The notes under the pieces were generated by a model that did not search any database, had not been told where the DNA came from, and saw only the letters and a program-made list of their open reading frames with translations. The translations under genes were made by a program, and so were the position numbers. Source: Verrucomicrobiota bacterium (GTDB taxonomy: Bacteria; Verrucomicrobiota; Verrucomicrobiia; Limisphaerales; UBA11358). From it: a stretch of 64,000 nucleotides of DNA. Below, piece by piece: positions 1,672 through 54,839 of the stretch. Position 1 is the first letter of the stretch, and every line of letters starts with the position of its first letter. The stretch covers positions 665 to 64,664 of the forward strand of contig JBEKYY010000001.1 of the NCBI GenBank assembly GCA_049510395.1. Direction: 5' to 3'.

Positions 1672-3762
1672 CTATTTTTTCAACGTCTTCAAGCCGGCTT
1701 CCCCACCAACGGGGGAACCGACAGATGCCGGTGGGTAAGGGACAGTCATCCCTGTGCCTGGAGTTGATGCAAACGAAGGCAGGTCCGCAAAAAACATGGT
1801 TAATGTCGTGGCAAACCAGGCAAATAGCACCGGAAGAAGGTATCGTCTGGCGTGATCTTCGGTATAGCCGATCACCAAGACCAGATTGGTGACGTTGAAC
1901 AAGCTGGCAAAAACCATGCTGAACGCGGTCAAGGCCCCGATCAGCATCGCCAGCATCCAGACAACGACCCGGCGCCGGACGGGAAGGGCAAACCAGAGTG
2001 CAACCGTCAGCAACAGGCACAGCCATGCCAAACCAAGTGTCGAATGATTATACAATGATGAAAAGCCATCCCATCGGCCGATCCAGTGGAGCCGTCCGCT
2101 TTCTCCACTCCAGTTTGCGAAGTCAGGGTTCACAAACAATCGGGTGAGCAGAATCATGAAAATCCACGGACAGTTTGAAAGCGTGGTGCCGGGATTGTGC
2201 AGGGCGTAACCCGCCCAACCCGACTCGAAGTGCAAAACAGGTATCTGGACGCGCAAACAGACGAAGGGCAAGGCCGCCAGAAAACAGAACGCCAACATCC
2301 GCCAGAGGCGTGGCGACGGGTTCAATGAGGGTCGGGCCGAAGGCCATAGCAGCCAGCTTCCCACCAGTGCCAGAAATATGAAACCTTCGAACTTTGCCAT
2401 GGCTCCCCCAAACAACAATGTCAGCCCGAGGCCGAGCCGGGCGCGGTCTTTTCCCACCAGCCAGAAAGCGCATTGCACGAAACCCATGACGGTGAACAAA
2501 ATCATTGGCAGGGTGCCGCCTTCGTATTGGACATATTTCTGAGTGTCCGGCAATAACAGCAGACCCAGGAGGGCGAAATTCGGAGCGTGAAACAGTCTTT
2601 TTCCGCCCTGATTCATTGAGGCCAGTGCGGCCAGGAGAAATAACAGCATCCAAGTGGGCCAGAACTTGGTGACAAACTCATCCACATGCCCGAGCGAGTC
2701 AAACGTGGCCGCATGCAGCGAAGGCACGAGCGTCGGATAGTCGAGATGCGCATGCGCCAGACGCGGATTGGAAAACCATTGCACTATCTCGTTTCCGGTG
2801 TAGAGGTGGATGATCTTTGCCTTGAGCATCCACGCCATGACCGAGTCGTATTCGACAATCCCCTGCAACCCGGCCAGACGGAAGAGAATCAGGAACACCA
2901 GCAATCCAGCCACAAAAAGCGCAACGGCAACGGGACTGCGAACCATCCTCCAGTAACCGGCAACAATCCCGGTCAAATAGGCTTTGCGATTGCGCCACAT
3001 TTCCGCAATTGCCCCAACGGCAGTTGCCATGAGAATCAGCCCCCGCCCGTGGAAACCGCAGAGCTTGACGCCCAGTGTCACCGCTGCCACCGCCATCATT
3101 CCCAAGCCCAGACCATACGCCAGTTGTTCCAGCAGCGGCATCCGCTCGCTCAGAGTGGAAAACAAGAAACGAAACAGCCACAGCCCCGCCAACGCCGTCA
3201 ACAAGGGAAGTAGAATAGCAATGACCAGATCGAAATCGGAGTCAAACCAATCCGGATTGACCGGGTCTCTGAGGGAAAGATCGTGAAGCGATCTGGCAGT
3301 CACAGCGTCAGATGTAATATTCATTCTTACATCGAATCCGTTGGAAAGAATTTCCTGATCGGACTCAGATGTCTTGCCGAGAAAGCCGTCCTTGGTTAAT
3401 CGGGTGATATGATCCAGGCTCGTCCCAATCTCCCGGGGAAAGAAGTGATAGGTCGCCCAATAATAATATCCCATCCTGCTCAAGTTGGTGGGTCCGGTCA
3501 TGTCCGTCATGAAAATACGCGCATCTTTTGGCAGCACTAAATCAATGTGTCGATCTGCTCCGGAAGCTGAACTGATTTTATTGTCTCTTTCCGAAATATC
3601 AGAAATCTTCGCCAATTGTCTTCCTCGGATGTAGGACTGGGCGACGGATGACAATGGTCCCTCTGATCCTTTTCCGTTATAGTGTTGAAACTGCCACGCT
3701 ATCACGAGGCTGGTAAAAGCCACCAGGGATGCCGCAACAATGGCTGCCCAACGGCTATTCAT
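1672..3762 (-). CDS. Polytopic membrane protein, tandem paralog 2 (about 696 aa); family not recognised
   Basis: The ORF track gives 1672-3771 with a TTG start. I prefer the ATG at 3762 because the MNSRW start is shared by all three copies. The protein has an N-terminal TM helix, a non-membrane stretch of about 150 aa, then many hydrophobic helices. Confidence 0.8.
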   Translation of the reverse strand: MNSRWAAIVAASLVAFTSLVIAWQFQHYNGKGSEGPLSSVAQSYIRGRQLAKISDISERDNKISSASGADRHIDLVLPKDARIFMTDMTGPTNLSRMGYYYWATYHFFPREIGTSLDHITRLTKDGFLGKTSESDQEILSNGFDVRMNITSDAVTARSLHDLSLRDPVNPDWFDSDFDLVIAILLPLLTALAGLWLFRFLFSTLSERMPLLEQLAYGLGLGMMAVAAVTLGVKLCGFHGRGLILMATAVGAIAEMWRNRKAYLTGIVAGYWRMVRSPVAVALFVAGLLVFLILFRLAGLQGIVEYDSVMAWMLKAKIIHLYTGNEIVQWFSNPRLAHAHLDYPTLVPSLHAATFDSLGHVDEFVTKFWPTWMLLFLLAALASMNQGGKRLFHAPNFALLGLLLLPDTQKYVQYEGGTLPMILFTVMGFVQCAFWLVGKDRARLGLGLTLLFGGAMAKFEGFIFLALVGSWLLWPSARPSLNPSPRLWRMLAFCFLAALPFVCLRVQIPVLHFESGWAGYALHNPGTTLSNCPWIFMILLTRLFVNPDFANWSGESGRLHWIGRWDGFSSLYNHSTLGLAWLCLLLTVALWFALPVRRRVVVWMLAMLIGALTAFSMVFASLFNVTNLVLVIGYTEDHARRYLLPVLFAWFATTLTMFFADLPSFASTPGTGMTVPYPPASVGSPVGGEAGLKTLKK

Positions 3763-3831
3763 GGAATCCAAAACGCATGCTGATTAAAAGAGTTTTGCGC
3801 AGACCGGAGCACTGTAAAGACGAAAAACGTA

Positions 3832-3915: not shown

Positions 3916-6006
3916 CTATTTTTTCAACGTCTCTAGGCCGGCTTCCCCACCAACGGGAGAACCGACAGATGCCGGTGGGTAAGGGACAGCCGTCCCTGTG
4001 CCTGGAGTTGATGCAAACGAAGGCAGATCTGCAAAAAACATGGTTAATGTCGTGGCGAACCAGGCCAACAGCACTGGAAGAAGATATCGTCCGGCAATGT
4101 GATCCTTGGTATAACCGATCACCAAGACCAGATTGGTGACGTTGAACAAGCTGGCAAAAACCACGCTGAACGCGGCCAAGGCGCCGATCAGCATCGCGAG
4201 GATCCAGACAATGACCCGGCGCCGGGTGGGAATGGCAAACCAAAGCGCCACCGTCAGCAACAGGCACAACCATGCCAGTCCGAGTGTCGAAGGATTATAC
4301 AACGATGAAAAGCCATCCCATCGGCCGACCCAGTGAAGTTGTCCGCCTTCATCACTCCAGTTTGCGAAGTCAGAGCTTACAAACAATCGGGCGAGCAGAA
4401 TCATGAAAATCCACGGACAGTTTGAAAGCGTGGTGCCGGGATTGTGCAGGGCGTAACCCGCCCAGCCCGACTCGAAGTGCAAAACAGGTATCCGGACGCG
4501 CAAACAGACGAAGGGCAAGGCCGCCAGAAAACAGAACACCAACATCCGCCAGACGCATGGTGACGGTTTCAATGAGGGCCGGGCCGAAGGCAGCAGCAGC
4601 CAGCTTCCCAGCAGTGCCAGAAATATGAAGCCCTCAAACTTTGACATGGCCGCCCCAAACAAAAGCGTCAGCCCAAGACCGAGCCGGGCGCGGTCTTTTC
4701 CCACCAGCCAGAAAGCGCATTGCACGAAACCCATGACGGTGAAAAAAATCATTGGCAAGGTGCCGCCTTCGTATTGGACATATTTCTGGGTGTCCGGCAA
4801 TAACAGCAGACCCAGGAGGGCGAAATGCGGGGCATGGAACCAGCTTTTTCCGGCACGGTTCAGCGAGGCCAGGGCGACCAGAAGAAACAGTAGTATCCAG
4901 GTGGGCCAGAACTTGGTCACAAATTCATCCACATGCCCGAGCGAGTCAAACGTGGCTGCATGCAGCGAAGGCACGAGCGTCGGATAATCCAGATGCGCAT
5001 GCGCCAGGCGCGGGTTGGAAAACCATTGCACCATCTCGCTCCCGGTGTAGAGGTGGATTATCTTCGCCTTGAGCAACCACGCCATGACCGAGTCGTAATC
5101 TACAATCCCCTGCAACCCGGCCAGACGGAAGAGAATCAAAAATACCAGCAATCCAGCCACAAAAAGCGCAATGGCGACAGGGCGGCGAATTATCCTCCAG
5201 TAACCGGCAACAATCCCAGTCAAATAGGCTTTGCGGTTGCGCCACATTTCCGCGATGCCGCCCAGTGCGGTTACAGAGAGAATCAAGCCTCGCCCTGAAA
5301 AACCATACAATTTGACGCCCAGTGTCAGTGCTGCCACGGCCATCATTCCCAGACCCAGACCATACGCCAGTTGTTCCACCAGCGGCATCCGCCCGCCCAA
5401 GGTGGGGAACAAAAAGCGGAACAGCCACATCCCCGCCAAGGTTGTCAGCAAAGGAAGCAGGAACGCGATAATCAGGTCAAAATAGGAGTCAAACCAATCC
5501 GGGTTGGCTGGTTCTTTGACGGCAAAATTTCTGAGCGCTGTCACTCGCAAAACTTCATCAGGGCTGATATCTACTCTTACATCGAATCCGTTGGTGAGAA
5601 TTTCCTGATCGGACTCGGATGTCCTGCCGAGAAAGCCATCCTTGGTTAATCGGGTTATATGATCCAGGCTCGTTCCCACCTCACGCGGAAACAAGTAATA
5701 GGTCGTGTAATAATAATACATAATCCGGCTGTAATTGGTAGGGCCAGTCATGTCCGTCATGAAAATACGCACATCTTTTGGCAGCATTAAATCGATGCGT
5801 CGATCTGCTTCAGAAGCTGAAATCCTTTCGCCGTCTCTATCCAAAATACCAGAAATCTTCGCCAATTGTTTCCCTCGAAGAATGGACTGCGCCAGGGACG
5901 GATATGGCTCCCGCACATCATCGTAATGCCTAAACTGCCACGCTATCACAAGGCTGGCAAAAGCCACCAGGGATGCTGCGACGATGGCTGACCAACGACT
6001 ATTCAT
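3916..6006 (-). CDS. Polytopic membrane protein, tandem paralog 3 (about 696 aa)
   Basis: The ORF track gives 3916-6015 with a TTG start; the ATG is at 6006. The C-terminal two thirds are near-identical to paralog 2. Confidence 0.8.
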   Translation of the reverse strand: MNSRWSAIVAASLVAFASLVIAWQFRHYDDVREPYPSLAQSILRGKQLAKISGILDRDGERISASEADRRIDLMLPKDVRIFMTDMTGPTNYSRIMYYYYTTYYLFPREVGTSLDHITRLTKDGFLGRTSESDQEILTNGFDVRVDISPDEVLRVTALRNFAVKEPANPDWFDSYFDLIIAFLLPLLTTLAGMWLFRFLFPTLGGRMPLVEQLAYGLGLGMMAVAALTLGVKLYGFSGRGLILSVTALGGIAEMWRNRKAYLTGIVAGYWRIIRRPVAIALFVAGLLVFLILFRLAGLQGIVDYDSVMAWLLKAKIIHLYTGSEMVQWFSNPRLAHAHLDYPTLVPSLHAATFDSLGHVDEFVTKFWPTWILLFLLVALASLNRAGKSWFHAPHFALLGLLLLPDTQKYVQYEGGTLPMIFFTVMGFVQCAFWLVGKDRARLGLGLTLLFGAAMSKFEGFIFLALLGSWLLLPSARPSLKPSPCVWRMLVFCFLAALPFVCLRVRIPVLHFESGWAGYALHNPGTTLSNCPWIFMILLARLFVSSDFANWSDEGGQLHWVGRWDGFSSLYNPSTLGLAWLCLLLTVALWFAIPTRRRVIVWILAMLIGALAAFSVVFASLFNVTNLVLVIGYTKDHIAGRYLLPVLLAWFATTLTMFFADLPSFASTPGTGTAVPYPPASVGSPVGGEAGLETLKK

Positions 6007-6083
6007 GGAATTCAAAACGCATGCTATATTATCGGAAAATGGTATCAGCCAGGGACTCGCGGAGCTCGTCCCTCCGAAATAAT

Positions 6084-45050: not shown

Positions 45051-45272
45051 GACTCATCGCCTCGTCGCGCTGAAGCAACTTGCCGCGTCGAAGTGAAACG
45101 AAGACGGGAGCGAAGGCGGAAGCGCGGGGGAAACGGGAAAGTTTGGAAAGGTTGCGCCGGCCTGCGAGTGCTGGTGGCCGTGCGCCAGCACCTGTGGCTG
45201 GGGTTTAATACGCCGCCAAAGGTAGCAAACCACAATCAAACACGAGCGTGCGAGAATGGAAAACACTTCCTT

Positions 45273-45320
45273 ACACGACGTGTAGAAAAGTGTAGACACA
45301 ATAAATCCCGCAGGTAGAAT
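45273..45320 (+). promoter_or_regulatory. Candidate promoter/operator of the methyltransferase gene
   Basis: There is a palindrome ACACGACGTGT (45273-45283), and GTGTAGA is repeated at 45280 and 45290. The -35-like TAGACA (45293-45298), a 16-nt spacer, and the -10-like TAGAAT (45315-45320) precede an ATG only 6 nt downstream, which implies a near-leaderless transcript. Confidence 0.35.
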
Positions 45321-45326
45321 CGGCAC

Positions 45327-47690
45327 ATGGATTCCGTTGAAAAAGTATTAAAGGCCGTGCTGGATTTCCACGCAGGCGACCCGCAGTTGCTGGCCGTTCA
45401 ACTCAAAGCATCGCCAGCTTCGGTTCAACGCTGGGTGACTGGCGCAGCCAAGCCCCGTCCCGCCTATGAGGCAAAGCTCCGAAAAATTTATTCCGAACTG
45501 GTAAGCCAACCGTCCGAATTAAAAGAGACCCCGCCAGCCTACCGTGTCACCCCGCATCATCCGATGATAACGGAGGCAGTTGACGCAACGCTCCGGTCTA
45601 TTCGAGAGATTCTGCATAAGCGCGCTCATCTGTCATCGAGAAGCCAGGCACTGGATGAACTGTCCAAACTTCTCTTTGCTCACGTCGAAGGTCTGCGCCG
45701 TGGTAACGGGGGCATTTCCCGGCAGGCCGTTGCTCGAAACGGCCAGAGTCTGGCCGCAGCTTTGAAAGAGCATGTGGACGAAACGATTCGTCAAAGCCTG
45801 CCGGAATCACTCGCGCACTCTGTGGATGCGCGGGACTTTGAATTGAAGCTCAAGCCACAGGAGAACGAGTTGGCGGCGGAGTTGGTTGAGTGTTTTGAAA
45901 CATTACAACGGCAAACCTCCTCATTTAGTTTTTCCGGCTTCGACATTCTCAACGAAGTGTTTGGAAAATTCTTGGCGGATTCGTTTATTGACGAGAAAGA
46001 GCTTGGCCAATATCTGACACCGCCTGAAGTGGTCAGATTCATGATTGGTCTGGCGATTCATGGACTGTCCGACTCGGAACTGGAGATGCTTTGTGATCCC
46101 AAGCGGTGTGCCGATTTCGGTTTGATTCTCGATCCATCGTGCGGGGTGGCTTCATTCCTAGCCGAAACAGTTCACCAGCTTCAGGAGCGAATGAAGGAAC
46201 GCATACAAGACGCCAAGCAGCGCGAAGCTTGGCTCAATGCTCTGCTTGGGCGCGTGGTGGTCGGGATAGATAAAAGCGAGAGAATGGTTCGGCTGGCGCT
46301 GACCAACATTGCCATGTTCGGTTTTCCGATGGCCAGGCTTCACCTCGCCAACTCGCTCGCCAGAAACGGAGCGGATGCCAAACTTACGGACAGTTTGGCC
46401 GGAAAGGTCAGGTTGATTCTAACGAATCCCCCCTTCGGCGCGTCTTTTCAAGGCAACGACTTGGTGAAATACAAGATTGCAACCCAGTGGTCACGGCGTT
46501 TCCCCGGACGTTTGGATTCCGAAATTTTATTCATGGAGCGTTACCTCGACTGGCTTGCTCCTGGGGGGCAACTCATCGCAATCGTGCCCGACAGCATTTT
46601 AACGAACAAGGCCGTGTTTGAGGAACTGCGCCGGGGAATTGCGAACGACATTGATTTATGCACGGTCGTTTCGTTGCCTAGCGTGACTTTTGGTGTTGCA
46701 GGCACAAACACAAAAACCTCCATTCTTCATCTGCGCAAGAAATCGAAAGCAAACGGTTCATCACAATGCACGGCGTTCGCCATCTGCCAAGACATCGGAT
46801 TTACAGTTGCGACGAAGGCAAACCAGCGCATGAAGATTGTTCAGGGCGAGGGTGATCTCCCTCGCATCCTCAATGAGATTACCGAGCCGCCGCCCAAATC
46901 GAATTTGGTAAGGTGGCTGGAGGATGCCCATGTTCTTGAGCGGTGGGATGCTCAACACCACGCTTCGCTGTCAGCCGAAGTTGAGCAGCGTCTCAACCTC
47001 AAGACCGACGAGGATCTTTATGTTTCGGACGTTGCCGAGTTGGTGGACGAGCGCGCCGACCCGCGCCGATGGGGAGACAAACAATTCAATTATATCGAAA
47101 TCTCTGACATTGATTCACAGACTTGTGTTGTTTACTCCAACAGTATCGAAACTTCAGTCGCACCGAGTCGGGCGAGAAAGATTGTGAAAGCAGGTGACGT
47201 GCTGGTTTCAACGGTCCGACCAGAGCGCGGGACAGTCGGGATCGTTGGGCCGCATCAAGATGGCTCGGTTTGCACGACCGGGCTGGCTGTCTTGCGGCCA
47301 ACGAAGATTAACGCACTGACTTTGGCCTGTCTCTTGAAGACCGAATTTGTGATTGCTCAACTTATGCGCAACAACGTCGGCATCGCGTACCCCGCTATTG
47401 ACGAGTCCTGTCTTTTGGGGGTGCTGCTGCCGGCTCGGCGGGAGGATTTGCCGAAACTTCGGCGGCAAGCCGCAGAGATTTCAGAGAACGAGGAACGTCT
47501 TCATACCATCCGAAAGCGCTTCAAGGAATCTATTGAGAGTGCCGGGGCTGCGTGGCGGCAGATGAACTTCAAGCCAGCTTCCAAACCTCATCCAGCGATC
47601 CAAACCACGTCCCGTCGCCAATCTCGCACGGTGGATTCTGGTTCACATGATCAGGAAACTTTTCAGCTCGCGGCAAGCCATAGCGCTTGA
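45327..47690 (+). CDS. N6-adenine DNA methyltransferase with N-terminal HTH and C-terminal HsdS-like target-recognition region
   Basis: It has an HTH-like segment LAVQLKASPASVQRWVTG, motif I LDPSCGVASFL and motif IV LTNPPFGASF. The TRD-like segment is GDVLVSTVRPERGTVGIV...TGLAVLRP. Confidence 0.8.
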   Translation: MDSVEKVLKAVLDFHAGDPQLLAVQLKASPASVQRWVTGAAKPRPAYEAKLRKIYSELVSQPSELKETPPAYRVTPHHPMITEAVDATLRSIREILHKRAHLSSRSQALDELSKLLFAHVEGLRRGNGGISRQAVARNGQSLAAALKEHVDETIRQSLPESLAHSVDARDFELKLKPQENELAAELVECFETLQRQTSSFSFSGFDILNEVFGKFLADSFIDEKELGQYLTPPEVVRFMIGLAIHGLSDSELEMLCDPKRCADFGLILDPSCGVASFLAETVHQLQERMKERIQDAKQREAWLNALLGRVVVGIDKSERMVRLALTNIAMFGFPMARLHLANSLARNGADAKLTDSLAGKVRLILTNPPFGASFQGNDLVKYKIATQWSRRFPGRLDSEILFMERYLDWLAPGGQLIAIVPDSILTNKAVFEELRRGIANDIDLCTVVSLPSVTFGVAGTNTKTSILHLRKKSKANGSSQCTAFAICQDIGFTVATKANQRMKIVQGEGDLPRILNEITEPPPKSNLVRWLEDAHVLERWDAQHHASLSAEVEQRLNLKTDEDLYVSDVAELVDERADPRRWGDKQFNYIEISDIDSQTCVVYSNSIETSVAPSRARKIVKAGDVLVSTVRPERGTVGIVGPHQDGSVCTTGLAVLRPTKINALTLACLLKTEFVIAQLMRNNVGIAYPAIDESCLLGVLLPARREDLPKLRRQAAEISENEERLHTIRKRFKESIESAGAAWRQMNFKPASKPHPAIQTTSRRQSRTVDSGSHDQETFQLAASHSA

Positions 47691-48447
47691 CGTCTTTAGG
47701 AACTGAACGGGCGAACGCAAATTCGCGGATGTTGCCGCTACGCAAGAAAAGACTGACCGCAAAGAAGTCTTGGGTGGCAAATTTGCAACTGCTCGTTGGA
47801 TAACCATCTGTCAGGCTGTGAATCAAGCGCGCGAATTTGGTGTTCGTTCCCCAAAGTGATTTAGCTTCGAGCTTTTTAATGACGCCTGACTTCTCCACTT
47901 CGAAATCAAAATAAGCGTAGCCGCCGATATGCTTAGCCATGTCTTCGGGCATCCGGCGTACTTTGTAACCGGCCTTCTTCAAAACTTGAACAAGCGAATA
48001 CTCGACCAAGCCGCTGAGAACTTTTGCCGATGCCCCATACTGGTCAACTTCCAAGAAATCGTTTTGTGAGAGACCCGCCAGCGCTTTCTCAAGCTCTGCT
48101 TTCTTTGAAGCTGAACCTGTGTAAATTTCTCCTTCGGCAACGCCTGCTCGCTTATCCACAGAAAGAATCCGACCTTTGGCAATTTCCCGCCAGACACCGC
48201 CTTCCTCGTAGGATTGTGGAACAAATTTGCCCGTTCGACCGGGAACAGCCAAGTCTTCACACTCCTTGTCGATACGGATCTTGAAGCTGGCGCGGTAGTG
48301 GCTTTGGCCGGAAACCTTGATGATGGTTTTGTCGAGTGTTCTAATCGGAATAAGAACCGGACAGAGAATGCTCTCAAGTGCCTGCGGCGTTACATCACCA
48401 TAGCGCTTTGTCAGCCGCTCAAAGAGAGCCTTGTAATCAACTTTCAT
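47569..48447 (-). CDS. Candidate restriction endonuclease (PD-(D/E)xK-like), convergent with the methyltransferase
   Basis: A possible catalytic core is LVEYS...YFDFEVEKSGVIKKLEAKS (E...D-x12-E-x-K). The gene is AT-rich and its 3' end overlaps the MTase gene by 122 nt. Confidence 0.45.
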   Translation of the reverse strand: MKVDYKALFERLTKRYGDVTPQALESILCPVLIPIRTLDKTIIKVSGQSHYRASFKIRIDKECEDLAVPGRTGKFVPQSYEEGGVWREIAKGRILSVDKRAGVAEGEIYTGSASKKAELEKALAGLSQNDFLEVDQYGASAKVLSGLVEYSLVQVLKKAGYKVRRMPEDMAKHIGGYAYFDFEVEKSGVIKKLEAKSLWGTNTKFARLIHSLTDGYPTSSCKFATQDFFAVSLFLRSGNIREFAFARSVPKDVKRYGLPRAEKFPDHVNQNPPCEIGDGTWFGSLDEVWKLA

Positions 48448-48500
48448 AAATCAGTTCTTCGCCCCCGCTATGCCCTTCCATTTTATGCCTTTCACCCAGA

Positions 48501-48699
48501 GGTGGTCACAGTTTGTGACCACCTTCAAACACTTTAAGGTCGCAAATTGCGACCTTAACCCGAACCGGTCACAGATTGTGACCGGTCCATTTGATATGCC
48601 AATTTGGCATTTCAAAAACTCTGCCCACTTGCTGCCACGATCTTGAGGTCACAAATTGTTACCAGTTCCACATCCTTCTTGAAATCATAAACTGTGATT
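48501..48699. repeat. Array of six palindromes with 3-nt centres
   Basis: The six sites are 48501-48523 GGTGGTCACAgttTGTGACCACC, 48536-48556 AAGGTCGCAaatTGCGACCTT, 48564-48586 ACCGGTCACAgatTGTGACCGGT, 48596-48610 ATGCCAattTGGCAT, 48647-48663 GGTCACAaatTGTTACC and 48683-48699 AATCATAaacTGTGATT. Confidence 0.9.
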
Positions 48700-48783
48700 G
48701 CGGACGAGTTCGGCAGCGGCGTTCACCAACGCCCCGGGCGGTTGGATTCGGCGATCGTGGAGTTCATGGGCCGTCCTCTAGTT

Positions 48784-49317
48784 TCAATCCTCCTCGCGGA
48801 ACTTCTTCACGGCAAACCGCTGGATGCGCACCGGCTCGAACTCGCCAATGCCACCCTTGCACCGCGCAGTGGTGAGTTGTTGCTCGACGGTTTTGATGCC
48901 TTTGACGTCGGCCAGCAATATCCCGCAACGATTATCTTCGGTGGTCAGCACGACGCCGTAACGCCGCGGGTCCAACTCCGTCGTCGAGGTGACTTCCTCC
49001 GGCGGGTGAACCACGCTGACCTCGAAGTGCAAATGCTCCAATTCGCGGGGGCCAACCGGCGCAAAACGTCCATCACGGAAGGCGGCATCGCGCGCGACGT
49101 GCCACGTTTCCTCAGCGGTGTTCGCAAAGTGTGGTGTCAACGTGCCGACGCAGCCGCGCAATTTCTGTCGCGGACCGCGGATGGTAACGAACACGCCGTG
49201 CCGCTCGCCCAGGATGCCCTCCGCCGCGATTGCCGGTTTTCCCGCATCGCCGCGGAACGCGGCTTCGATCGAGCGCCGCGCGATCTGCGAAAGCGCCTTT
49301 CCGGTTTCCTGCTCCAT
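48784..49317 (-). CDS. amrA: AMMECR1-domain protein (AmmeMemoRadiSam system protein A)
   Basis: It has the LRGCVGT motif and the RDGRF segment. I prefer the ATG at 49317 (MEQETGKALSQIARRSIEAAF) to the ORF-track start at 49365. Confidence 0.75.
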   Translation of the reverse strand: MEQETGKALSQIARRSIEAAFRGDAGKPAIAAEGILGERHGVFVTIRGPRQKLRGCVGTLTPHFANTAEETWHVARDAAFRDGRFAPVGPRELEHLHFEVSVVHPPEEVTSTTELDPRRYGVVLTTEDNRCGILLADVKGIKTVEQQLTTARCKGGIGEFEPVRIQRFAVKKFREED

Positions 49318-49346
49318 AATTTCAGTTCTTCGCCGAGGCAAGAGGC

Positions 49347-49458
49347 GGTTGTAATTTGCTACCACCTCAAACGTTTAAGTTCGCAAATTGTTACCAGTTC
49401 CGCGTTCATCCCGAAATCACAATTTGCAATTTCAAGGTAGTCACAGATTGTGACGACC
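49347..49458. repeat. Second, colinear palindrome array
   Basis: The four sites are 49347-49363 GGTTGTAattTGCTACC, 49379-49395 GTTCGCAaatTGTTACC, 49415-49431 AATCACAattTGCAATT and 49436-49458 GGTAGTCACAgatTGTGACGACC. The spacer blocks (acctcaaacgtttaa, agttccgcgttcatcccga) are homologous to those of the 48501-48699 array. Confidence 0.85.
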
Positions 49459-49500
49459 TTTTCTCAGCTAAGCGCGATAGACCAGTCCGGCTTGGATCGC

Positions 49501-49623
49501 CAACCCTGGGCTGATGGATTTGACTTGAGCCGTTTGGGAAACGGCGAAAGGAATTTGGCAAAGCCAAAGGCCTGCCAAGGCCGAGCGAGCGGGCGCGAGT
49601 GAGTCCATCCCGTTGGGATTCAC
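49501..49623. repeat. CAACCCTGGGCTGATGGATTTGA ... CCCGTTGGGATTC repeat
   Basis: The blocks at 49501-49523 and 49605-49623 are shared with 51323-51363. Confidence 0.7.
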
Positions 49624-49654
49624 GGACGAAGCGTAACGCAGTGAAACGAAAGGG

Positions 49655-51094
49655 CTACGGTCTAAACAAACGAAAGAAAGCGTTTCCAACTGGCGAAGCC
49701 ATGAACAAATGGTTCGTGCCGTCATCTTGAATGCCATTTGTCACATTGCTCCAGTTTGATGTTTGGAGGCCATTCGTATTCTCCTGAAGCGCGCATCTTG
49801 GCGCGGGAGAAGGCCAGGAGACGGCGACTTGATTCGTCGCTGTTAGCCGAATCTGGAGCAATGGCGGCGGGATACTGAACAAATATGCCGCACCTGTGTT
49901 CATGGCGCCCGTATTGTCGCCAGGAGAACCTGCCAGCACCAAATCGTCGCCAAAGACGGCTAATGAGCTGCCGAACCCAAGATATAGATTGAGATATATC
50001 GCCGTGGGGTTGGTAAAAGTAGCCAGCGTGTTGCCGTTCGTGCTGAACAAAAATACCGTCCCGGAGCGGGTTTGGACATTGTCATCGGGGGCGCCGATGA
50101 GCACTTGATTGGTGTCCACCGCGGCGATGGAGGAGCCAAACTGCGCGCTCGGATCCGCATTCGGATCGGTGAAAGAAGCTAGCACCGCAGCGTTGGTATT
50201 GAATAAATAAACGGTTCCCGATGACGCACTGATAAGCACCCGGTCGTTACCCAACGCGACCATGGACCACCCATAATTCTCATAGTTTGGCGCATTTGAA
50301 TCGGTAAAATTCATCAGCAAAGTGCCATTGGTATTAAACAAATAAGCCCCACCGGGATTCGAGGTATAAGGGTCGGTCTGCGGCGCGCCCACCAGCAATT
50401 TGTCGTTGAAGACCACTGCAACCGAGTGACCAAACAGATTATCGCCCGGAATCGGATTGGTGATCGTGGTTAACAGGATCCCGTTCGTGCTGAACAAAAA
50501 CGCCGCGCCGCTGTTGGGGATGCTCAACTGATAGCCTTGTGCCCCGATCAGTACCCGGTCCCGACCCAGCGCCGCCACGGAACTGCCAAACTGGAGTACC
50601 GACGACGGAGTGGGATTGGTGAAAGTCGTCAGCAAGTTTGCATTGGTGTCAAACAGGTAGGCCGCACCGCCGCCGTCCGCAAACCGCGCGCCGATGATCA
50701 CGCGATTGTTGCCCATTGCACTCATGGCCTCGCCGAACTGCGCGCCCATCTTCGGGACCGGATTGGTGAAGCTCAACAGCAATGTGCCGTTCGTATTAAA
50801 CAGATAGGCGGCTCCCGCGTTCTCGGCTCCCGTGTCATCGGCGGGCGCGCCGACGAGCACCCGGTCATTCCCCACCGTCGCCACCGACCAGCCGAATTCA
50901 GCAAATGCGCTGGGGACAGGGTTGGTGAAAGCCGTGATTAATATTCCCGTTTGCGCGAGGCAGACAAACGGAGCGAGCAGCCCAACCACGTCCAAAATTT
51001 TAACTAAGCGGAATTTCACGGCGTCAGGAATAACAGTAACCCCACACGGCACCCCAGACAATCCTGAATTGCGCCACTGATGGCGAAGAACCAT
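49655..51094 (-). CDS. Secreted FG-GAP-like beta-propeller repeat protein
   Basis: There are at least 7 repeats of about 45-50 aa of the type FG.SVA..G.DRVLIGAP....GAAYLF.TNG.LL.TFTNP. The C-terminus carries a W...LQ...FFRL module. The start is uncertain. Confidence 0.65.
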   Translation of the reverse strand: MVLRHQWRNSGLSGVPCGVTVIPDAVKFRLVKILDVVGLLAPFVCLAQTGILITAFTNPVPSAFAEFGWSVATVGNDRVLVGAPADDTGAENAGAAYLFNTNGTLLLSFTNPVPKMGAQFGEAMSAMGNNRVIIGARFADGGGAAYLFDTNANLLTTFTNPTPSSVLQFGSSVAALGRDRVLIGAQGYQLSIPNSGAAFLFSTNGILLTTITNPIPGDNLFGHSVAVVFNDKLLVGAPQTDPYTSNPGGAYLFNTNGTLLMNFTDSNAPNYENYGWSMVALGNDRVLISASSGTVYLFNTNAAVLASFTDPNADPSAQFGSSIAAVDTNQVLIGAPDDNVQTRSGTVFLFSTNGNTLATFTNPTAIYLNLYLGFGSSLAVFGDDLVLAGSPGDNTGAMNTGAAYLFSIPPPLLQIRLTATNQVAVSWPSPAPRCALQENTNGLQTSNWSNVTNGIQDDGTNHLFMASPVGNAFFRLFRP

Positions 51095-53212: not shown

Positions 53213-53295
53213 TCAATTCTTCGCCCCCGCGAGTTCCTCTTCGAAATCCACAATCTCTTTGATTTGTGTCAGGAACCGGCGGCCTTGGCAATTGC
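53213..53295 (-). pseudogene. Duplicated remnant of the carB(N) 3' end
   Basis: The minus-strand translation ...[22 protein letters not shown] matches the genuine end ...[23 protein letters not shown] at 18/22 residues. About 80 nt align with 53334-53415. Confidence 0.8.

Positions 53296-53333: not shown

Positions 53334-54839
<1,506 letters not shown>

Follow-up and report, generated by a model that had tools for sequence, protein, structure and literature searches.

Genomic context of the palindromes

Two arrays of short palindromes lie beside a candidate restriction endonuclease (REase) gene in a 64,000-nucleotide (nt) stretch of DNA from a Verrucomicrobiota bacterium (contig JBEKYY010000001.1 of assembly GCA_049510395.1, positions 665 to 64,664), which we refer to throughout as the window. 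The features here follow in the order FG-GAP protein, array 2 (the T sites), AMMECR1, array 1 (the S sites) and the 292-amino-acid (aa) REase candidate, and among the neighbouring genes only that of a methyltransferase (MTase) lies off the minus strand (Table 1). The sequence comparisons presented below indicate that these palindromes belong to a DNA element that accompanies genes with an ORF6N domain, and that array 1 is what remains upstream of one such gene after loss of its coding sequence.

The palindromes are found where a preliminary description of this sequence had placed them, and three are perfect: S1 and S3, each with 10-nt arms around a 3-nt centre (10+3+10), and S2, which was first delimited at 48536-48556 and now extends over 48534-48558 as a 12+1+12 palindrome. 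The earlier contention that this clustering is not due to chance is borne out by an exhaustive scan of the window, in which perfect 10+3+10 palindromes occur at three places only, all within 48501-48586. Moreover, the motif GGTNRCA-N3-TGYNACC, with at most one mismatch, has 7 matches in the window against 0.55 expected, 6 of the 7 falling at these arrays, and a weight matrix built from the array sites detects nothing comparable elsewhere in the 64 kb. Array 2 (49344-49458) is, as originally noted, colinear with array 1 including its spacers, and T4 is its sole site that is still a good palindrome. When folded as single-stranded DNA, S1-S3 reach -11.4 to -12.0 kcal/mol (z-scores -5 to -8) and S4 and T4 reach -8.4 kcal/mol; S5, S6 and T2 hardly fold. 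The element core TC(A/G)CAAWTTG(T/C)GA, or its variant TGCCAAnTTGGCA, centred on CAAWTTG, is matched by S1-S5 and T4. In the element at large, self-complementarity extends to 10-14 nt per arm, with flanks of the types TTGAGG, TTAAGG, AGGTGG or AACCGG. The sites of the window differ in flank type (S1 AGGTGG, S2 TTAAGG, S3 ACCGG, S5 TTGAGG), and each of these four is seen again in the genome set of 322 sites described below. Both arrays are identical across ten metagenome contigs, all representing one population.

An element linked to ORF6N genes

The motif GGTC(A/G)CAAWTTG(T/C)GACC is tied to ORF6N-domain genes (Pfam PF10543; PADLOC candidate PDC-S05). Scanning one genome per species for two adjacent GGTCRCA-N3-TGYGAC sites 9-39 nt apart yielded at least 120 loci, against a chance expectation that we roughly estimate at less than 1. 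Among the matches listed, these loci span Verrucomicrobiota, Bacteroidota, Planctomycetota, Omnitrophota, Kiritimatiellia, Acidobacteriota, Spirochaetota, Firmicutes, Actinomycetes, Pseudomonadota, Patescibacteria and DPANN archaea, and clustering of their flanking open reading frames (ORFs) gives one family common to 104 loci; once antisense artefacts are set aside, the second cluster covers 7. With a profile of this family, members are detected in 107 of 121 loci (the 120 scan loci listed plus a viral locus, L016; loci are given by our own numbers). The shared family is the ORF6N domain PF10543, matched by the PDC-S05 model of PADLOC with E-values down to 1e-59 and labelled anti-repressor in PHROGs. 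In the genome set, ORF6N genes contain 2-6 in-frame sites each, which encode the repeat L-R/K-S-Q-I/F-V/A-T-S; at many loci, additional sites are found just upstream of the ORF6N start.

The same association is seen in a second sample that was not selected by the motif, drawn from viral contigs by means of anchor peptides that lie beyond the palindrome ([AV]FTE[HQ]G and Y[GE]VxTK). The core TC[AG]CA-N3-TG[CT]GA is present at +190 to +250 in 25 of its 31 non-redundant ORF6N genes, and most of the remaining genes carry a near variant (TGCCAAATTGGCA, TTCCAAATTGGAA or one mismatch). The approximately 99 kb of this sample contain 30 core matches, and every one belongs to an ORF6N gene, 26 within the gene and 4 within 101 nt upstream. 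The internal palindrome is situated about 210 nt from the ORF6N start, often with arms of 12-14 nt (e.g. GTTTGAGGTCACAAATTGTGACCTCAAAC), and is read in different frames by different members: frame 0 gives RSQIVTS (L-R-S-Q-I/F-V/A-T-S) and frame +1 gives V/I-T-N/I-C-D, for example (L)ITNCDK and VVTNCDHL (L138, L140, L156, L013). Upstream arrays consist of 1-5 copies, the last of which often lies 15-40 nt from the ORF6N start codon; arrays of 2-5 sites are found in many phyla (L094, L087, L098, L083, L081, L058, L124).

Full-text searches of the literature on ORF6N, on PDC-S05 and on the motif in its DNA and peptide forms returned the protein family only and no description of a DNA element. Likewise, Rfam contains nothing relevant to the window at E-values up to 10, and nothing at gathering score in 15 related loci. 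The palindrome, a widespread DNA element tied to ORF6N, appears not to have been described before. GenBank phage records contain this ORF6N type in five unannotated uncultured entries only.

A verrucomicrobial member of the family (L225, 4001-4549) sits within a housekeeping operon, between a deacetylase gene, from which it is separated by 21 nt, and prmC, which it overlaps by 4 nt, and by its position appears to behave like an inserted single-gene cassette. On the viral contig L016 (IMGVR_UViG_3300033150_001469), at least 9 copies of (G/T)GTCGCAAAATGCGACC occur at 2570-2725, inside a gene for a 298-aa HTH_36 initiator-like protein that is followed by a DnaC-like ATPase; this sharing of the motif may reflect a relationship to the ORF6N palindrome or may be coincidental. 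Small ORFs in 48440-49760 of the window mostly read through palindromes. One of 54 aa (48451-48615, minus strand) crosses S4-S1 without a stop, alternates between the two palindrome frames (KCQIGIS, VTICDRF, RSQFATLK, VVTNCDHL) and terminates in a carB-like tail (IAGAKN-stop); it is probably not a gene.

Selection on the palindrome as DNA

Comparison among sites indicates that the palindrome is under selection as DNA, and not as peptide or mRNA, because its arms covary, G-T and A-C mismatches are balanced and a CAA codon is forced. For the 17 distinct sites of the anchor sample, 89.5% of cells are paired, compared with 71% after column shuffling and 25-40% in controls with a slid partner, with double changes at 10 of 14 arm pairs and G-U pairs nearly absent. 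Within the genome set, the two arms are complementary at the R/Y position, which the search did not constrain, in 303 of 322 sites, and the likewise free positions 8-12 pair in 72-89% of sites (mostly 80-89%), whether these are coding, upstream or orphan. In the coding orientation, G-T mismatches are as common as A-C mismatches; this speaks for a constraint on the DNA, double-stranded or on either strand, and against a hairpin in the mRNA.

Codon usage points the same way. The palindrome's Gln codon, the third base of which was left free by the site search, is CAA in 173 of 180 cases (96%), compared with 493 of 930 (53%) for other Gln codons of the same genes (p 1e-33), and in genes of at least 55% G+C the central Gln is CAA in 47 of 49 cases, compared with 80 of 201 elsewhere. 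A synonymous Ser site (TCA/TCG) covaries with a Val/Ala replacement (GTG/GCG), as does a synonymous Leu site (TTG/TTA) with a downstream Ser/Leu replacement. Coding pairs of sites are spaced by a multiple of three in 93 of 94 cases, non-coding pairs in 29 of 72; the spacings of the window (34, 29, 28, 52 and 36) belong with the non-coding ones. Helical phasing of non-coding spacings produces weak peaks only, at 39-43 and 49-53 bp.

From ORF6N cassette to orphan array

Six-frame hmmsearch of the 64 kb finds no ORF6N homolog in any frame of the window. A hidden ORF6N pseudogene within the arrays can be dismissed, as six-frame hmmsearch and tblastn recover only palindrome-encoded peptides and a short remnant of a gene start. 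The palindromes of the window agree with ORF6N-linked ones in sequence, flank types and order, and array 1 is colinear with the region upstream of intact ORF6N genes, as in L027, a Limisphaerales locus in which S4-, S3-, S2- and S1-type sites occur in that order, followed by 18 nt and then an ORF6N ATG. One or two of these upstream sites are present in L067, L013 and L234, the proximal one always of the AGGTGG..CCACCT type, and the TGCCAAnTTGGCA variant of S4 is found both inside ORF6N genes (L137) and as the distal upstream site of L027. The arms of S1 recur in the proximal upstream site of L027, L067 and L234 and in the internal palindrome of the L013 ORF6N gene.

Starting at S1, the window follows L234 nearly base for base (...CTC(T/G)GG..AAAGGCAT(A/G)AAATGGA(A/C)GGGCA), in an alignment that takes in the spacer of about 20 nt, the ORF6N ATG and the first four codons (48470-48500; tblastn match PPLGERHKMEGHS). 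Beyond this start remnant the window runs directly into the carB-like sequence GCGGGGGCGAAGAACTGA, which also stands at the 3' end of the L234 ORF6N cassette. Because the array, the ATG and the first codons are retained and the sequence then jumps to the 3' tail of the cassette, array 1 is best read as the upstream array of an ORF6N gene from which a coding sequence of about 550 bp has been deleted, and S1 as the promoter-proximal site of that former gene. An undeleted arrangement is preserved in L013, with an upstream site, an ORF6N gene containing the internal palindrome AGGTGGTCACAAATTGTGACCACCT (S1 arms), the tail and a homologous REase gene; when the 3' half of this ORF6N gene is compared with the window, no homology is found past the tail.

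ORF6N lies directly after carB in L234-L241, in the same carB...yebC neighbourhood as in the window. Three further copies of the last 13-60 nt of the window's carB N-half gene precede the DUF4365, AMMECR1 and REase genes, each copy standing immediately ahead of its gene. The L234 ORF6N cassette is flanked by the same carB-end repeat. From this pattern the region looks like a stack of cassettes accreted in tandem at the 3' end of carB, and array 2 is a later, decaying duplicate of array 1 plus tail, now before AMMECR1, since it carries the tail in an already shortened form. The preliminary description had considered the palindromes as recombination sites of gene cassettes. The genes here are indeed cassettes with carB-end junctions, but the junction repeat is GGCGAAGAAYTGA and not the palindromes, which travel with ORF6N genes in unrelated contexts.

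Neighbouring genes

Table 1 Positions in the window of the array sites, the carB-end copies and the adjoining genes
Feature	Position	Strand	Description
MTase upstream block	45272..45299	+	TACACGACGTGTA plus GTGTAGACAC; conserved in four restriction-modification loci
MTase	45327..47690	+	N6-adenine methyltransferase fused to specificity domain
REase candidate	47569..48447	-	PD-(D/E)XK endonuclease candidate, 292 aa; directly downstream of array 1
Partial carB 3'-end copy	48451..48468	-	GCGGGGGCGAAGAACTGA; ORF6N cassette 3' tail, directly before REase ATG
ORF6N start remnant	48470..48481	-	ATG GAA GGG CAT, compared with ATG GAC GGG CAG of the intact L234 gene
S1	48501..48523		GGTGGTCACA-GTT-TGTGACCACC; perfect 10+3+10; flank type AGGTGG..CCACCT
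S2	48534..48558		TTAAGGTCGCAA-A-TTGCGACCTTAA = TTAAGGTCGCAATTTGCGACCTTAA; perfect 12+1+12; colinear with L027 site TTAAGGTCGCAAATTGTGACCTTAA
S3	48564..48586		ACCGGTCACA..TGTGACCGGT; perfect 10+3+10; colinear with L027 site ACCGGTCACATTCTGTGACTGGT
S4	48590..48616		variant TTTGATATGCCAA-T-TTGGCATTTCAAA; TGCCAA-T-TTGGCA type; 12/13 arm positions paired
S5	48647..48663		GGTCACAAATTGTTACC; one arm mismatch
S6	48683..48699		AATCATAAACTGTGATT; degenerate; homologous to T3
AMMECR1 gene	48784..49317	-	between arrays 1 and 2
Short second carB 3'-end copy	49322..49334	-	directly before AMMECR1 ATG
T1	49344..49366		degenerate S1 copy
T2	49379..49395		degenerate; left half of S5 joined to right flank of S2
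T3	49415..49431		degenerate site
T4	49436..49458		near-perfect palindrome; 15-nt core identical to S3
carB 3'-end copy, ~60 nt	53213..53275	-	end of a 39-aa ORF
True 3' end of carB N-half gene	53334..53396	-	sequence copied at cassette junctions

The 292-aa protein has 740 homologs and an invariant D181..E194-x-K196 motif, and its AlphaFold2 model (predicted local distance difference test score, pLDDT, 89.5) has PD-(D/E)XK nucleases as its top structural matches, albeit weak ones (I-Ssp6803I, RecU and Hjc; best E-value 2.4e-3). The label of endonuclease candidate seems reasonable. The gene previously named amrA does belong to the AMMECR1 family (Pfam E-value 2e-34), yet its TIGR04335 score of 98.6 falls just under the cut-off of 99. 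Among 35 ORFs of at least 150 aa outside 42.4-54.9 kb, a Memo-family gene (PF01875) is located elsewhere in the window and AMMECR1 stands alone between the arrays, such that the usual AmmeMemoRadiSam trio is split. The convergent REase and MTase genes overlap by 122 nt (47569-47690), and this overlap is preserved in every homologous locus fetched. Farther away, two 699-aa paralogues (1672-3771 and 3916-6015) are 83% identical and have no Pfam hit.

The arrays and the restriction-modification pair

The preliminary description proposed that the arrays serve as operators for a helix-turn-helix (HTH) domain of the MTase and hold the endonuclease under control in the manner of SsoII-type systems. 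This proposal drew on two features: the N-terminal stretch of the MTase, which has no Pfam hit, looks HTH-like in sequence, and the array sites share the centre ACAAATTGT with the SsoII regulatory site. The latter site, AGGACAAATTGTCCT, does occur in the literature, but only this 9-nt centre is common to it and the array sites. The comparison of homologous restriction-modification (R-M) loci, designated in advance as the test of the operator proposal, goes against it. The REase and MTase pair is found in nine other contexts (REase 62-96% identical), all without arrays upstream of the REase gene: L011/L012 (REase identity 92%), L014/L015 (76%), L217/L218 (93%), L219 (89%), L220 (85%), and L221-L223 and L224 (96%); in L013, where REase identity is 84%, no array precedes the REase gene either. 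An SsoII-type operator is expected to be conserved together with its R-M pair, and the arrays are not. In addition, the same palindromes are present at more than 100 loci that do not have this MTase.

Upstream of the MTase gene there is, moreover, a different palindrome and promoter block, conserved in the window, L011, L013 and L014, which can also be written TACACGNCGTGTA-GAAAAGTGT(T/A)GACAC or (T/C)ACACGNCGTGTAGAAAAGTGT(T/A)GACAC and includes a TTGACA-like hexamer. Judging from its conservation, it is likely to be the MTase's own operator and promoter, and it is a likelier candidate than the arrays for control by the HTH-like N-terminus. Given the nine contexts of the R-M pair without arrays and this separate conserved block of the MTase, the arrays are, on the evidence of these alignments, not MTase operators and not part of the R-M system. 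We therefore reject the original proposal, which the locus comparison brings close to refutation, and retain one aspect of it: the arrays do look like multi-site operators before the endonuclease gene and amrA, although the binder and the system had been wrongly assigned.

Palindrome pairs are nonetheless seen repeatedly at R-M loci. One lies between hsdM and a RhuM-family gene (L057, 5278-5320) and another about 300 nt upstream of an MmeI-like methyltransferase gene, so labelled from a reading of its N-terminal sequence (L022, 3211-3301), and in L058 (3540-3860) palindromes occur upstream of the gene for a 288-aa ORF6N protein that also weakly matches Rha.

Proposed function and alternative explanations

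The most likely function, we infer, is that of an operator array for ORF6N-type proteins. The palindromes would be operators bound by these proteins, which are predicted to possess a KilA-N-like DNA-binding domain and a coiled coil. Coiled-coil proteins were the only matches to the C-terminal part of the ORF6N profile among solved structures, in a sequence search of the Protein Data Bank, and a coiled-coil C-terminal half suits a symmetric oligomer; ORF6N proteins probably act in this form. Intact cassettes may thereby be autoregulated: the upstream sites would act at the promoter, and the internal site would provide a second operator or a roadblock. The internal site could allow a gene inserted in a foreign operon, such as that between the deacetylase gene and prmC, to carry its own control. 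Within the window, ORF6N paralogues from other parts of the genome would, through the orphan array, control the REase gene and, to a lesser degree, AMMECR1. The existence of such paralogues is plausible because the verrucomicrobial ORF6N subfamily has at least 8000 database relatives, the best 120 of which are all at least 80% identical. A promoter-like match on the minus strand that overlaps S1 (GTGACC, 18 nt, TAAAAT), first noted in the preliminary description, was reproduced, but with 2 such matches against 0.9 expected it is not significant; it might act as a fortuitous promoter for the REase gene. Taken jointly, orphaned ORF6N upstream arrays, an operator role and control of REase and AMMECR1 in trans form what we regard as the best explanation, to which we would give an even chance. 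According to a preprint, E. coli is protected approximately 1000-fold against T7 and T5 by a RhuM-domain representative of PDC-S05, which need not be closely related to the ORF6N proteins considered here.

Several observations weigh against the operator explanation. DNA binding by the ORF6N domain is a prediction, reportedly made by Iyer, Koonin and Aravind in 2002, and the 64 kb contain no ORF6N gene, which leaves the factor acting in trans hypothetical. L027, L067 and L234 do not conserve the TAAAAT box, which in the window overlaps the start codon of the former ORF6N gene; an apparent overlap of promoter and operator in L058 (Bacilli) proved invalid, having a 14-nt spacer and no support from the promoter scan, which likewise found nothing of this kind in L135. 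The L225 gene lacks an upstream palindrome, and some ORF6N genes thus have no upstream site, while certain orphan pairs (L023, L024) are flanked by convergent genes, a setting in which an operator would have little purpose. Furthermore, at least 2 different self-symmetric flank types stand side by side in 42 of 98 loci, and such mixed symmetric flanks exceed what simple half-site recognition needs and fit better with hairpins or cruciforms, or with correction by template switching. An AlphaFold model of a 182-aa ORF6N protein was unusable (pLDDT 48).

The foremost alternative, possible if somewhat doubtful in our estimation, is that the arrays are functionless leftovers of the ORF6N cassette deletion, their perfection being due to recent origin or to quasi-palindrome self-correction by intrastrand template switching. 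This would agree with the loss of the ORF6N coding sequence, with the decay of array 2, S5 and S6, with the absence of arrays from the closest R-M relatives (L221-L224) and with the symmetric flanks of varying sequence, which are the expected product of template switching. However, S1-S3 are more perfect than their counterparts before intact genes in L027 and L234, orphan pairs of perfect 25-nt palindromes recur in unrelated phyla (L019, L024, L057, L091, L110), and the ten metagenome contigs, though from one population, carry the arrays unchanged. A structural role as hairpins or cruciforms in recombination, cassette exchange or replication, which widens the cassette-site suggestion of the preliminary description, we consider quite unlikely. 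Covarying arms, the conserved CAAWTTG centre and hairpin energies down to -12 kcal/mol speak for it, as do the position of the arrays at cassette junctions beside repeated carB 3'-end copies, the occurrence of ORF6N genes as single insertions in unrelated operons and the iteron-like use of the motif inside the replication-initiator-like gene of L016. Yet the junctions themselves consist of carB-end copies, the L234 palindromes are tied to the ORF6N start and not to that repeat, the motif has no attC-like boxes, and no recombinase, HUH or RAYT gene accompanies the element among the 121 loci.

Hairpins acting in mRNA or intergenic transcripts, as stabilisers, processing sites or terminators, seem highly improbable. 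The three genes around the arrays are co-directional, such that read-through transcripts would hold the hairpins, and a consensus scan calls some sites terminator-like in AT-rich loci; against this stand the near absence of G-U pairs, the equal G-T and A-C mismatches, the want of an Rfam match and the lack of T-tracts in gene orientation here. The related notion of a family akin to repetitive extragenic palindromes (REP) and bacterial interspersed mosaic elements (BIME), also raised in the preliminary description, finds no support, since the window has no other copy and all 30 core matches of the anchor sample fall in or near ORF6N genes.

Implications and comparison with known systems

Few candidate single-gene defence systems are as common as ORF6N/PDC-S05 proteins, for which, to our knowledge, neither a mechanism nor a nucleic-acid target has been described. 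A 17-29-bp palindrome found across bacteria, archaea and viral contigs offers a concrete candidate ligand or control site for the family. Its maintenance as DNA inside coding sequence, in two frames and across domains of life, is an unusual family-wide property, and accounts for the appearance of the 'conserved motif' of the Pfam ORF6N domain. For the window, a story specific to the R-M system is replaced by one of a lost ORF6N gene, a control region left before a restriction endonuclease gene and a stack of cassettes bearing carB ends, and we infer that the arrays are orphaned palindromic control sites of a mobile defence gene. More speculatively, and in our view rather unlikely, the palindrome could be an autonomous DNA module that imposes on the domain its hallmark peptide (RSQIVTS or VTNCDHL, depending on the frame) and acts as a control site within a horizontally mobile defence gene, with orphan arrays wiring neighbouring defence genes, here the REase gene, to ORF6N proteins in trans, possibly phage 'anti-repressors', as an infection-responsive switch.

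Among known systems, SsoII/Ecl18kI-type MTase sites and C-boxes resemble the arrays in the logic of a palindromic operator before a restriction gene, SsoII additionally in the 9-nt centre. However, SsoII has one 15-bp site between its R and M genes that moves with the system, whereas the window has 6+4 sites that do not move with the R-M pair. Unlike SsoII-type and C-protein-controlled type II systems, the R and M genes of the window are convergent and no C-protein gene is seen beside the REase gene; no small ORF in 48440-49760 has a hit to a tested family. REP and BIME sequences and Rickettsia palindromic elements are likewise palindromes capable of forming hairpins, in intergenic arrays or in frame inside genes, but they are dispersed in one genome and lineage-specific, whereas the ORF6N palindrome is tied to one gene family, at a fixed position, in many phyla, with no further dispersed site in the 64 kb.

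Integron attC sites combine palindromic DNA with a short conserved core just before the start codon of the next cassette, and the window likewise has palindromes followed by a short core directly before the next start codon. Here, in contrast, the core is a carB 3'-end copy and the palindromes are homologous to ORF6N upstream regions; no integron integrase was found among the Pfam families of the 35 large ORFs, judging by the 25 commonest of 70 families listed. The palindromes in and upstream of ORF6N/PDC-S05 genes are like those of the window in the respects described above, differing in that the window has the sites without the gene. Finally, the O gene of phage lambda contains the iterons of ori-lambda, dyad-symmetric binding sites placed inside the linker-coding part of the protein's own gene. 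ORF6N genes differ from lambda O in being single, with no replication module beside them, and in that their binding is as yet a prediction, but the layout of a predicted binding site within its own gene is the same, and L016 presents precisely that layout with the motif of the ORF6N palindrome.

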